Of a stretch of DNA of 64,000 nucleotides, positions 35,430 to 38,316 are shown one piece after another. Each line of letters opens with the position of its first letter. The stretch's first letter is position 1. The position numbers and the translations under genes were made by a program. The DNA is taken from positions 1-64,000 of the IMG/VR virus record IMGVR_UViG_3300028832_000131. One strand, written 5' to 3'. The notes beneath the pieces are model-generated. The model searched no databases and had not been told where the DNA came from. It saw only the letters and a list, made by a program, of their open reading frames with translations. The DNA comes from a virus (Duplodnaviria > Caudoviricetes).

Positions 35430-35510
35430 AGTGAGCAAACGTGATTTCCCTTTGCAGTTTGCTTAGTGCTACACGGGAGCATAACCGTATTTATATAGTT
35501 ATGTTCCCAA
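35430..35510 (+). ncRNA. Two-hairpin RNA (portal leader or sRNA) antisense to late-gene upstream motifs
   Basis: Stem 35433-40/35457-64 with loop AUUUCCCUUUG, linker AGUGCUACAC, stem 35475-85/35498-508. Confidence 0.65.
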
Positions 35511-35539
35511 TTCTATTAGGGGACGGAATGGGTGATAGT

Positions 35540-37141
35540 ATGGACGAAAACAATGTTGAAAATGTTAATCAAAATGTTGAAAATAACAATGAAACTCCTG
35601 TTTCTACTCCAAGTAGACCAACAGACAGGGTACAAAATCCTGTAATGATTGCTCCTGCCGAATTAAGATTATATGGTAGAAAAGTAATTTATGCGGATTT
35701 TCATGCTGACGAAATGAATACTGAGACGATTAAGAAGATTTTAAATGACGTTTTTAATATTCATGTTCAAAATGCAAGTGAAATTGATTATTTAGAAAAG
35801 TATTATAGAGGTTATCAACCTATTATTGGTAAGAAAAAAGAAGTAAGACCTACCATTAATAACACGGTTGTAGAAAATAATGCGTATTTCGTAACAGAGT
35901 TTAAGAAAAGTTATGTATTTGGTGAGCCTATTCAGTACGTTCAACGTGGAGACGTTGCTAACGAAGAGGTTTCAACCTTAAATAGTTATATGTTAGCCAA
36001 AGACAAGTATCCTAAAGATACTGAATTGGCTGAAAGTATATATGTATCAGGAATAGGACACAGAATAGTACTTCCTAGTTCTGATTATGATAGTCCGTTC
36101 GATATTGAAAACTTAGATAGTAAAAATACGTTTGTAGTATATTCTAGTTTCTTACCTCACGAAAGATTGTTTGCTTTCACTTATACAATAGGTGTTAAAG
36201 ATAGCAATTTAAGAGGTAGTATATATACTAAAAACGCTTATTACGAAGTTAATAAGGATTCAGTAAGTTCGGAGTTTAATGTAGTGTTTAAACAAAATCA
36301 TATATTAGGTGATATACCGATATTTGAATATTGTTTAAATAAATCTAGGTTAGGTATTATTGAAGTAATTATGGATTTGTTAAATCAAATAAACCGAATT
36401 ACTTCTGATGAAATTGATGGATTAGAGCAATTTATTCAAAGTATCTTAGTATTTGTAAACCAAGATATAGATGCTGAGGATTATGCTAGTTTACTTGATT
36501 TAGGTGCTGTAAAAATTGCTACTAGCGACCCATCAAGACCTGCTGACTTAAAGTTGCTATCTAATAACATAGACCATGGTAATACTAAGATATTACATGA
36601 TAGGTTATTAAATACTGCTTTACAAATAATTGGTATTCCTAAAAGTAACGAAAGAACGTCTGGTGGAGATACTGGTCAAGCCCGTATGTTATCAGAAGGT
36701 TGGACTATGGCGGATGAACGTGCTAAACAAGACGAAATGCAGTTTAAACGCTGTGCTAAACCAGAGTTAGAGTTAATTTTAAGAATATGTACTTTATCAC
36801 CTTGGAGTGATATTAATTCATTAACTTTGAAACAAGTTGAACAAAAGTTTACTCGTAATAAGAGTGATAACTTCCTAGTTAAGTCTCAAGGATTGATGAA
36901 TCAAATTAATAGTGGAGTTTCACCTGACGTTGCTATGGCTACTACAGGCTTATATAGTGACACTAACGAGGCTTATAACAAATCAATGGCTTTCTATGGA
37001 GGAGTTGATAATTGGATTAAGTTATTTGTAGGTGAGGCTAACAAACAACTTAGGGAAAAGAAGAATGATGAACAGTCTTCTTTAGATAGTGGAGACAACC
37101 CTCCTAAAGAAGGAGAGGAAACTTCAAATGGGGATGAATAA
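35540..37141 (+). CDS. Portal protein, SPP1 gp6-like (start moved from 35441 to ATG 35540)
   Basis: Position after terL; YYRGYQ, FGEPIQY, SGGDTGQA patterns; SD GGGTGA before 35540. Confidence 0.9.
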   Translation: MDENNVENVNQNVENNNETPVSTPSRPTDRVQNPVMIAPAELRLYGRKVIYADFHADEMNTETIKKILNDVFNIHVQNASEIDYLEKYYRGYQPIIGKKKEVRPTINNTVVENNAYFVTEFKKSYVFGEPIQYVQRGDVANEEVSTLNSYMLAKDKYPKDTELAESIYVSGIGHRIVLPSSDYDSPFDIENLDSKNTFVVYSSFLPHERLFAFTYTIGVKDSNLRGSIYTKNAYYEVNKDSVSSEFNVVFKQNHILGDIPIFEYCLNKSRLGIIEVIMDLLNQINRITSDEIDGLEQFIQSILVFVNQDIDAEDYASLLDLGAVKIATSDPSRPADLKLLSNNIDHGNTKILHDRLLNTALQIIGIPKSNERTSGGDTGQARMLSEGWTMADERAKQDEMQFKRCAKPELELILRICTLSPWSDINSLTLKQVEQKFTRNKSDNFLVKSQGLMNQINSGVSPDVAMATTGLYSDTNEAYNKSMAFYGGVDNWIKLFVGEANKQLREKKNDEQSSLDSGDNPPKEGEETSNGDE

Positions 37142-37283
37142 CTCCCCCCATATCGGGAGTGAAAGGTAAATACTTTTACTCCTGTCCAATAAACAAAGAA
37201 AAACAGACTAATATCAACTTTTTCTTTCCTTATGTGTCGCCTTTATAGGTGGCACACAGTAGATATGAATAATAATGGTGAGA

Positions 37284-37357
37284 TTGACAATGCAAACTGC
37301 TACTGCATACCGTATTTTTGTTTGGTGGTAGCGATAACCAGCAAAGAGTAAAGTCAA
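37284..37357 (+). ncRNA. Compact three-way-junction RNA with kissing loops
   Basis: P1 TTGAC/GTCAA, two hairpins whose loops GCTAC and GTAGC are complementary. Confidence 0.5.
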
Positions 37358-37481
37358 CGTAGTTATATCTATTGTGTGGTGCTTATAAAAGCACTAGAAC
37401 TTCTTCTTGTTCTGTTTAGGTAAAAGTCATTAATACGCTATCTATTTTTATAGGTAGCATAGAGTAGATATATAAATAAAT

Positions 37482-37557
37482 GGGTTTATCGTTTAACAGG
37501 AAAGGATTATGGTCTCCAAAACCATTGATTAGGGTTCGAATCCCTATGAATCTGCCA
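37482..37557 (+). tRNA. trnW: tRNA-Trp (CCA)
   Basis: 76 nt cloverleaf, anticodon loop CTCCAAA, T arm TAGGG-TTCGAAT-CCCTA, G73, encoded CCA end. Confidence 0.9.
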
Positions 37558-37683
37558 ATATATCTATTCTATGGTGCTTATAAAAGCATTAAATCTGCTC
37601 ATCATAGAGAGCATAAAATCTATGACACTCTAATAAGTTGGAACGAGGCAACTATAAAAGCGTAAGAGTGGGAGGAAAAATTA

Positions 37684-38316
37684 ATGGAAGAGGCAATTCA
37701 ACAGGTGTTAAGTAATGAAACTTACACTACGGATGAGGAAAGGGTAGATGCTATCAAAAAAGAGTTAGCCAAATTGGTTATCCCTAAAGATAAGTATAAT
37801 GACCTTAGTAGTCGTCTAAAGAATACGGAATCTGAATTATCGGCTTTGCAAACCGAGTATGAAGATTTCAAAAAGTCTAAAATGACTGATGATGAAAAAA
37901 GAGAGAGTGAAAGGAAACAGTTTGAAGAGCAAATAAAGCAAAATGCTATTGCTAAAAGCGATTTAGCGGTACAAAAGTTGTTACTTCAAAACGGTATTGA
38001 AATCAAAGACGAAGATACTGAATTGAAAGAAACACTAGCAACTATTGTTAGCGAAGATTATGATAAATCTCTTAAACTAGCAAATAGTTTTATATCTTTA
38101 ATCAATAAGACTAAAGACCAAACTGCTAAAGAAACAACTACAAAGTTGTTGAACGACACTCCTAAACCAATCGGTGGATTAGACAGTTCGTCTTCATTAA
38201 GTAAAGTTGATATGTTAAAGAAAGACTTAGAAGAGGCTATCAAAAATAAAGATAGCATGAAACAAACTGAGTTAATTAGTCAAATATATCAAGAAGAGCA
38301 TAAAACAGGGATTTAA
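37684..38316 (+). CDS. Capsid scaffolding protein (DUF4355-like)
   Basis: Coiled coil between portal and capsid genes; C-terminal TPKPIGG. Confidence 0.8.
   Translation: MEEAIQQVLSNETYTTDEERVDAIKKELAKLVIPKDKYNDLSSRLKNTESELSALQTEYEDFKKSKMTDDEKRESERKQFEEQIKQNAIAKSDLAVQKLLLQNGIEIKDEDTELKETLATIVSEDYDKSLKLANSFISLINKTKDQTAKETTTKLLNDTPKPIGGLDSSSSLSKVDMLKKDLEEAIKNKDSMKQTELISQIYQEEHKTGI

Follow-up and report, generated by a model that had tools for sequence, protein, structure and literature searches.

Why does the gap between two head genes of this phage hold two copies of one sequence block, each wrapped around a different RNA? The window (the whole stretch of DNA analysed, 64,000 nucleotides from a member of the Caudoviricetes) had been read in the initial annotation as carrying a repeated RNA-expression cassette, whose flanks act as processing signals and excise stable RNAs from a late transcript: a tRNA-Trp as payload 2 and, as payload 1, a small RNA with perfectly complementary loops. 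Every feature listed there was found, including the TTGAC/GTCAA and ATGCA/TGCAT pairings, and the interpretation as a whole is borne out in part: the shared flanks enclose other payloads elsewhere and payload 1 is conserved, but the short tips of many other copies cannot be cargo. Our analysis suggests that the cassette is an RNase III-type processing stalk that would release cargo RNAs and leave hairpin-capped ends, a reading to which we assign a probability of roughly 55%.

The cassette region lies between the portal gene and the next gene (Table 1), with the large terminase upstream and the major capsid downstream. The next gene matched no PHROG family; it occupies the slot where other cassette-bearing phages have a scaffolding gene and is probably a scaffolding gene itself. 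No sigma-70 promoter or intrinsic terminator was predicted in the gap between portal and next gene, nor at the local hairpins H1 and H3 described below, so the gap is probably read through within a long head-gene transcript, and the cassette region would be part of the late transcript. A promoter or terminator role for H1 and H3 was dropped, the intergenic region of the window containing no sigma-70 or intrinsic-terminator consensus, and the candidate small ORFs, of 28 aa within payload 1 and of 61 aa across the tRNA, were set aside because they lack a ribosome-binding site and conservation. ARAGORN and Rfam give a single tRNA in the 64-kb window; among close relatives (35 loci, retrieved via the portal protein) the portal-scaffold gap is a tRNA hot spot holding 0–7 tRNAs. 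No phage-encoded RNase III and no close cultured relative of the capsid protein were found, and searches of cultured-phage records with the intergenic region or a consensus-like cassette found nothing up to E = 10. The source record (G000) has 74,104 bases and is labelled 'linear', and four complete relatives measure 44–49 kb, three of them with direct terminal repeats; the 74-kb record may be a chimeric or concatenated assembly.

Two further elements share the gap with the cassettes. Just downstream of the portal gene, where relatives carry tRNA-Gln or tRNA-Pro, lies a tRNA remnant or 'minihelix'. Alignment to the tRNA-Gln of loci L006 and L008 shows that it has lost 42 internal nucleotides, which held the D and anticodon arms. 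It keeps a perfect 7-bp acceptor, which together with the T-arm forms a continuous 12-bp hairpin, and is called by neither ARAGORN nor Rfam. Directly after H3 of unit 2 begins a structured leader of the next gene, with 75–92% identity in all 35 relatives, including distant ones that have no cassette. RNAalifold predicts 16 pairs in this leader, 4 of them with compensatory changes. A 7-bp hairpin covaries, a further, inner hairpin pairs GUUG with CAAC, and the CACUC/GAGUG stem, which is invariant, lies next to the Shine-Dalgarno sequence. Rfam has no entry for the leader, which may act in translational control.

Two direct repeats make up the flanks common to both units, one 41 nt long with 85% identity and one 37 nt long with 78%, and the 17-mer TGGTGCTTATAAAAGCA occurs exactly twice in the 64 kb; allowing up to 3 mismatches gives 5 matches, against 0.33 expected by chance. 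The arms of the units are inverted repeats of 33 nt and 28 nt, and the whole-unit folds are more stable than those of dinucleotide shuffles (z = –3.5 and –4.1). The pairing of TAGATAT with ATATCTA around each payload, proposed at the outset, is thus present and proves far longer, the stems extending to 27 bp and 29 bp. The outer half of each arm can also fold locally instead, giving hairpins H1 and H3; in unit 1 the 3' strand of H1 doubles as the outer 5' strand of the long stem. The tRNA-Trp of unit 2 has a discriminator G, an encoded CCA and an acceptor stem of its own, which an 8-nt leader parts from the long stem.

Table 1. Positions of the features discussed; entries that carry no locus label refer to the window.
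Feature	Position	Strand	Remarks
Portal gene	35441-37141		upstream border of the gap
tRNA remnant (minihelix)	37154..37194	+	acceptor CGGGAGT/ACTCCTG, degenerate T-arm, TCCA
Unit 1	37231-37400	+	cassette copy
Unit 1 H1 local hairpin	37234..37255	+	GTGTCGCCT / AGGTGGCAC, loop TTAT; fold prediction
Unit 1 long-stem 5' arm	37242..37268	+	27 bp with 37363-37389; R1 63.3 bits; covariation
Unit 1 tip (payload 1)	37269..37362	+	94 nt; three-way-junction RNA; homologues L213, L137
Payload 1 helix P1	37284-37288 / 37353-37357		
Payload 1 helix Pa	37290-37294 / 37304-37308		
Payload 1 helix Pb	37317-37326 / 37337-37345		
Payload 1 complementary loops	37299-37303 / 37328-37332		GCTAC / GTAGC
Unit 1 long-stem 3' arm	37363..37389	+	inverted repeat, R1 model, covariation
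Unit 1 H3 local hairpin	37377..37396	+	GGTGCTTA / TAAAAGCACT region; overlaps outer 3' arm
Unit 2	37436-37595	+	cassette copy
Unit 2 H1 hairpin	37437..37458	+	GCTATCTAT / ATAGGTAGC; fold prediction
Unit 2 long-stem 5' arm	37445..37473	+	29 bp with 37558-37586; R1 65.8 bits
Unit 2 cargo, tRNA-Trp (CCA)	37482..37557	+	ARAGORN; Rfam RF00005 48.7 bits
Unit 2 long-stem 3' arm	37558..37586	+	inverted repeat, R1 model
Unit 2 H3 hairpin	37573..37590	+	fold prediction, swapped/shuffled-strand energies
Structured leader of the next gene	37590..37683	+	begins directly after unit 2 H3
Next gene (probably scaffolding)	37684-38316		downstream border of the gap
Close payload 1 homologue	L213:933-1025		same cassette, then two tRNAs
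Distant payload 1 homologue	L137:975-1061		invariant strands exact
~108-nt tRNA-like cargo, one arm type	L139:3800-3930, L101:9383-9513		
~108-nt tRNA-like cargo, another arm type	L169:102-232, L071:3009-3139, L095:5486-5616		

A covariance model of the cassette arms (R1) matches 17 copies in the window's clade, in which pairing holds in 97.9% of the stem's alignment cells and compensatory changes occur at 17 of 25 pairs; none of 500 shuffles did as well, and slid controls were 29–52% paired. The long stem is the minimum free energy (MFE) fold, or lies within 1.6 kcal/mol of it, in all 17. The local hairpins are conserved alongside it: H1 covaries with its own partner across the clade copies and has a mean energy of –10.35 kcal/mol with that partner, compared with –5.8 when partners are swapped and –3.3 when the outer strand is shuffled, and H3, conserved in sequence, has a mean of –6.6 kcal/mol that weakens to –1.9 when its outer strand is shuffled. 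Beyond the clade, 92 further distinct copies show pairing in 96.9% of cells and compensatory changes at 20 of 25 pairs. The helix of about 26 bp consists of 25 pairs and a G.G mismatch that is fixed across the 92 distinct copies; three of its positions are fixed as G.U (72–76 of the 92 copies), with few non-pairs. Stem length stays at 23–29 bp irrespective of the tip (13 copies measured), long enough for an RNase III substrate, that is, about 20 bp or more of near-continuous double-stranded RNA, or some two turns. A second arm type (GUACUGAUGAUAUAU / AUAUAUCAUUAGUAC) occurs in L004, L014, L050, L140, L072, L134 and L078, often in tandem with the common type; in L004 and L014 it is the one nearer the downstream gene.

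Outside the clade, a scan with the 3' arm matched at least 119 viral contigs, and R1 recovered 96 more copies in 79 viral loci. Judged from these loci, the cassette is a widespread modular element of many uncultivated low-G+C phages in rumen and gut metagenomes. Most of the 96 copies, 89 (93%), are intergenic, and 154 of 179 flanking ORFs (86%) are co-oriented with the element. Reverse-strand R1 scores fall 25–50 bits below the forward ones. The G.U positions, the orientation bias, the intergenic placement and the gap between strand scores together argue for a function in the sense single strand, most simply the transcript, and thus point to action at the RNA level with sense polarity.

Portal relatives at 79–87% identity have the same cassette just upstream of the ~85-nt conserved leader, with tips of 11–119 nt that are mutually unrelated. 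Relatives at 65–71% portal identity lack the cassette and have, besides the leader, a simple hairpin and an array of tRNAs. The five complete genomes of the window's clade carry it at one locus only, and some other phages have copies at two loci. The cassette typically separates the scaffold gene from a portal or minor head gene, or lies upstream of the terminase; these sites are junctions where expression levels must change, and the proteins flanking them belong to several unrelated families. A tRNA lies within 300 nt of 21 of 112 copies (3.3% background), and of the same 112, terminator-like hairpins bracket 8 upstream and 20 downstream. Rfam 15 contains no family matching the cassette arms, and its only hits nearby are tRNAs, one ROOL RNA and one skipping-rope RNA; as far as these comparisons reach, the cassette belongs to no described family and is an uncatalogued phage RNA element. 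The ROOL RNA (L055:3699-4300, minus strand, 183.8 bits) sits within a tRNA array just upstream of a cassette, and the skipping-rope RNA (L139:3656-3739, plus strand, RF02924, 55.3 bits) lies directly upstream of another. Cassette-bearing gaps appear to be islands of non-coding RNA. In the distant relatives L018 (5880-6132), L027 (5880-6165) and L022 (5945-6220), small ORFs are inserted between tRNA-Thr and tRNA-Trp, a further sign that the gap accepts foreign DNA.

If the stem is the constant part of the cassette, the tip is what varies. Looking for other payloads between the same flanks, as had been suggested for payload 1, was productive: they were found in more than 100 phage loci, tRNA-scoring and tRNA-like tips among them. 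Tip length ranges from 7 to 140 nt, and the 113 tips fall into 94 sequence clusters. About a fifth are shorter than 30 nt; these cannot be cargo, and such cassettes are presumably empty. Tips scoring above the Rfam tRNA threshold are those of unit 2 in the window, identified from the start as tRNA-Trp and confirmed by ARAGORN and by RF00005 (48.7 bits for a gathering threshold of 29, model positions 1–71), and of L008 (35.2 bits), L090 (44.5), L075 (41.4) and L112 (42.4). In L008 the acceptor stem of the tRNA is itself the inner part of the long stem, and in L075 and L090 the two are probably fused as well, as the T-arm abuts the 3' arm. A tRNA whose acceptor stem runs into the long stem cannot mature unless the helix is cut or removed.

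A family of tRNA-like cargo of about 108 nt, found across two arm types, shows 9 compensatory pairs. It has D- and T-arms and an acceptor stem fused to the cassette stem, and an expanded arm of about 12 bp with a 31-nt loop replaces the anticodon arm; the L139 copy fell below the reporting threshold in the Rfam search that covered it. The tRNA tips and the conserved cargo families indicate that at least some tips are selected cargo and that the arms are an interchangeable holder. The 17 clade copies had first suggested a locus-specific element with unconstrained filler at its tips, a reading that the wider scan overturned. Between L091 and L103 the flanks are 99–100% identical, and the tips and innermost stem are unrelated; comparisons of this kind indicate that tips are exchanged on short timescales. 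From H1 onward L040 matches L055 at 99.5% identity, and the sequences before it are unrelated, which places a recombination breakpoint at H1.

Payload 1 is the other cargo in the window. Rfam searches with 601-nt and 176-nt queries gave no family and no tRNA at E up to 10, and ARAGORN at a relaxed threshold made no credible tRNA call. The MFE of payload 1 is unremarkable against shuffles (z = +0.33), and support for its three-way junction therefore comes from homologues, not from thermodynamics. Long tips compared by eye revealed 9-mers common to payload 1 and L137, and a motif scan then gave L213. A two-motif pattern matched 115 viral stretches, among which ranking against payload 1 left L213 and L137 as the only real homologues; model R2 run over 884 kb had L137 as its sole other match (21.4 bits), and a third pattern together with R2 over a further 573 kb added no family member. 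A 25-mer of payload 1 had no match in viral contigs, and a 19-mer had 3 in genome contigs (Chitinophagaceae, Xenorhabdus), about the chance expectation.

The close homologue, L213, differs from the window's payload 1 at three compensatory pairs and has identical loops. In the distant one, L137, nearly all helix letters differ: P1, Pa and the base of Pb are rewritten yet paired, and the strands AAUGGU, ACCGUAUUU and GAGUAAAG are invariant in all three members. The three helices are thus kept through compensatory changes, which answers the call in the initial annotation for covariation across relatives; in a model-based alignment of three sequences, two of them close, and fitted to the model, every one of the 51 cells is paired and compensatory changes affect 9 of 19 pairs, compared with 27–51% pairing and 0–1 compensatory pairs in slid controls. 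Complementarity of the loops is likewise kept, as GCUAC/GUAGC in the window and L213 and, with different letters, as CUUAUC/GAUAAG in L137. Composition-preserving shuffles reach such complementarity in 4.5% of cases for the window/L213 lineage and 2.0% for L137; support for the kissing loops comes from two independent lineages only. The L137 loop also complements the window's other loop over 5 nt, and 5-nt loop matches are not rare; we consider the kissing loops plausible, not established. AUGGU (37275-37279) and ACCGU (37309-37313) are complementary too, and could form a helix crossing P1 as a pseudoknot; both are invariant in all three family members and hence give no covariation signal.

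With a P1 helix, two hairpins and complementary loops, with conservation in the junction strands and with covarying helices, payload 1 resembles an aptamer of the purine-riboswitch type. Unlike a purine riboswitch, it gives no RF00167 match at E up to 10, has no expression platform and sits at the tip of a hairpin rather than in a 5' UTR. Its junction strands ACCGUAUUU and GAGUAAAG are not the CUGAUGA/GAAA core of a hammerhead ribozyme. We regard it as likely that payload 1 is a conserved structured RNA, which would accumulate as a stable species.

A unifying model based on these observations is that the cassette marks a cut point of the long phage transcript, which is its most likely role. 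Co-transcribed with the flanking genes, the two conserved arms would pair into the helix of about 26 bp and present whatever RNA occupies its tip. A dsRNA-specific endoribonuclease, most plausibly host RNase III, would then cut the helix; to our knowledge, RNase III is nearly universal in bacteria. The cut would part the portal/tRNA segment from the stretch of message that encodes the next gene product (probably scaffolding) and the capsid. It would also free the tip as a small RNA, in the window a pre-tRNA-Trp from unit 2 and, from unit 1, the three-way-junction RNA of 94 nt. The outer half-arms could then refold, H1 capping the new upstream 3' end and H3 the new downstream 5' end. The loci themselves show how the stem is built, that it has RNA-strand polarity, where it occurs, that its cargo is diverse and that two cargo families, payload 1 among them, are conserved; we infer the cleavage of the stem by RNase III or another nuclease, the capping role of H1 and H3 and the function of payload 1. 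The processing-stalk reading accounts for the conservation of both folds, for tRNAs lying inside a helix, for the placement between genes needed in different amounts and for distant relatives that have only a tRNA array and one hairpin at the same place.

Several observations sit less easily with a processing stalk and have to be set against other explanations. RNase III recognition does not require a conserved sequence of this kind, and the conserved UUAUAGGUAG / GGUGCUUAUAA part could instead mark a site for a sequence-specific protein or a DNA-level site. The conservation of that part is to some degree a matter of ascertainment, as the copies were collected with an arm pattern and with a model derived from it. 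The short tips and the phage's lack of its own RNase III count against the processing stalk, and the terminator-like hairpins around some copies fit an internal processing site less well. The stem might accordingly act uncleaved, as an insulator or stabiliser or as the site of a regulatory protein (for example in antitermination or translational control) for the downstream late genes, with the tips as functionless passengers. The outer arm sequence, the fixed G.U positions and the G.G mismatch, all stricter than recognition of dsRNA by RNase III needs, would suit such an element, as would the conserved structured leader that adjoins the cassette in this clade, the many short tips and the position of some copies between terminator-like hairpins. 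However, tRNAs with an acceptor fused to the long stem could not mature if it stayed uncut, two cargo families are conserved with compensatory changes, and the element precedes unrelated genes; we find this explanation doubtful. Quite improbable, in our view, is a unit that works as a DNA hairpin, either a MITE- or PATE-like mobile element or a single-stranded DNA recombination site, which carries variable cargo and spreads from phage to phage and whose RNA structure is a by-product. Terminal inverted repeats of about 26 nt, tandem copies, several copies in some loci and an occurrence in phages whose flanking proteins differ in family all fit mobility; tips swapped between nearly identical flanks and the breakpoint at H1 fit recombination, and G.T wobbles would be tolerable in a single DNA strand too. 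Yet no empty site appeared among about 180 related loci and no target-site duplication was seen in the flanks, the five complete clade genomes have the element at a single locus, 86% of flanking ORFs share its orientation, and it is kept at the same gene junction across diverged phages.

For payload 1 the alternative is that a duplicated cassette was left with non-functional filler or the remains of a tRNA at its tip, and that the junction and kissing loops arose by chance. Its unexceptional MFE, the lack of an Rfam match and the small family (three known members, two near-identical) leave room for this, and L213 and L137 folded alone have MFE structures without the junction; matches between 5-nt loops are not rare (p about 0.045), and tRNA decay does occur at this locus, as the minihelix attests. 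Chance, on the other hand, would hardly keep invariant strands amid helices that L137 has rewritten and still pairs, at 51 of 51 cells and 9 of 19 compensatory pairs against the slid controls, nor make L137 the sole other match in 884 kb, nor preserve loop-loop complementarity in both lineages (p 0.045 and 0.020). Descent from a duplicated tRNA gene, which the initial annotation had put forward as the finding that would undo its proposal, does not hold: global and local alignments of payload 1 to the tRNA-Trp payload are no better than shuffles, and there is no tRNA signal. Filler is an unlikely account of payload 1.

Processing stalks of the proposed kind have precedents. Phage T7 carries intercistronic RNase III signals (R0.3, R0.5, R1, R1.1, R1.3 and others), sites of about 50–60 nt with an internal loop that are usually cut once and hold no cargo; after the cut, a hairpin protects the 3' end on the upstream side. 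Like the cassette, they are repeated hairpins of conserved sequence, intergenic and co-oriented with transcription in long polycistronic phage transcripts; the cassette, a putative cleavage site, differs in its helix of about 26 bp, its tips of 7–140 nt that include tRNAs and its latent hairpins on both sides. Paired flanks also enclose a stable RNA in the stalks of bacterial rRNA operons and in the precursor of the B. subtilis small cytoplasmic RNA, where RNase III cuts the helix. These stalks resemble the cassette in the long helix that 5' and 3' flanks form around the enclosed RNA; each of them serves one cargo, whereas the cassette stalk is found with at least 94 unrelated tips and is exchanged between phages. 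Correia elements of Neisseria (CREE/NEMIS) form inverted-repeat hairpins in mRNA that bind RNase III and can be cut, changing the expression of adjacent genes, and share with the cassette inverted-repeat ends, intergenic location and variable length (PMC2649163). They are MITEs dispersed over the chromosome in about 120–250 copies; their core is conserved, they contain an IHF site, and their ends form promoters (PMC2649163). In the cassette, by contrast, the core is hypervariable, a genome carries one or a few copies, and orientation is strongly biased. Of the marks of a MITE or Correia element it has the terminal inverted repeats; dispersed copies in the five complete clade genomes, filled versus empty sites among the loci compared and a target-site duplication in the flanks did not turn up.

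A more ambitious view, which we offer tentatively and rate as possible at most, is that the cassette is a horizontally exchanged 'RNA socket' of rumen and gut Bacillota phages, in which a single processing stem serves small RNAs (tRNAs, oversized tRNA-like RNAs and new folds) that are swapped by recombination in the arms. On that view payload 1 would found a new class of phage small RNA and would act either as a junction that binds a ligand or protein or as a decoy for a host defence nuclease.

What is new here is that the cassette reaches well beyond the window: 113 copies combine a conserved stem with interchangeable small RNAs at the tip. Should the stem be a reused processing stalk, each cassette tip is a candidate stable RNA, and more than 90 distinct candidates are in hand. 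The same reading, if true, would explain how tRNAs buried in long helices mature and how the low-abundance portal and terminase messages are separated from the high-abundance scaffold and capsid messages. The conserved arms are also recombination seams, as the H1 breakpoint and the tip swap show, which makes them relevant to phage mosaicism, and the cassettes might be put to use as natural, insulated units for expressing small RNAs.
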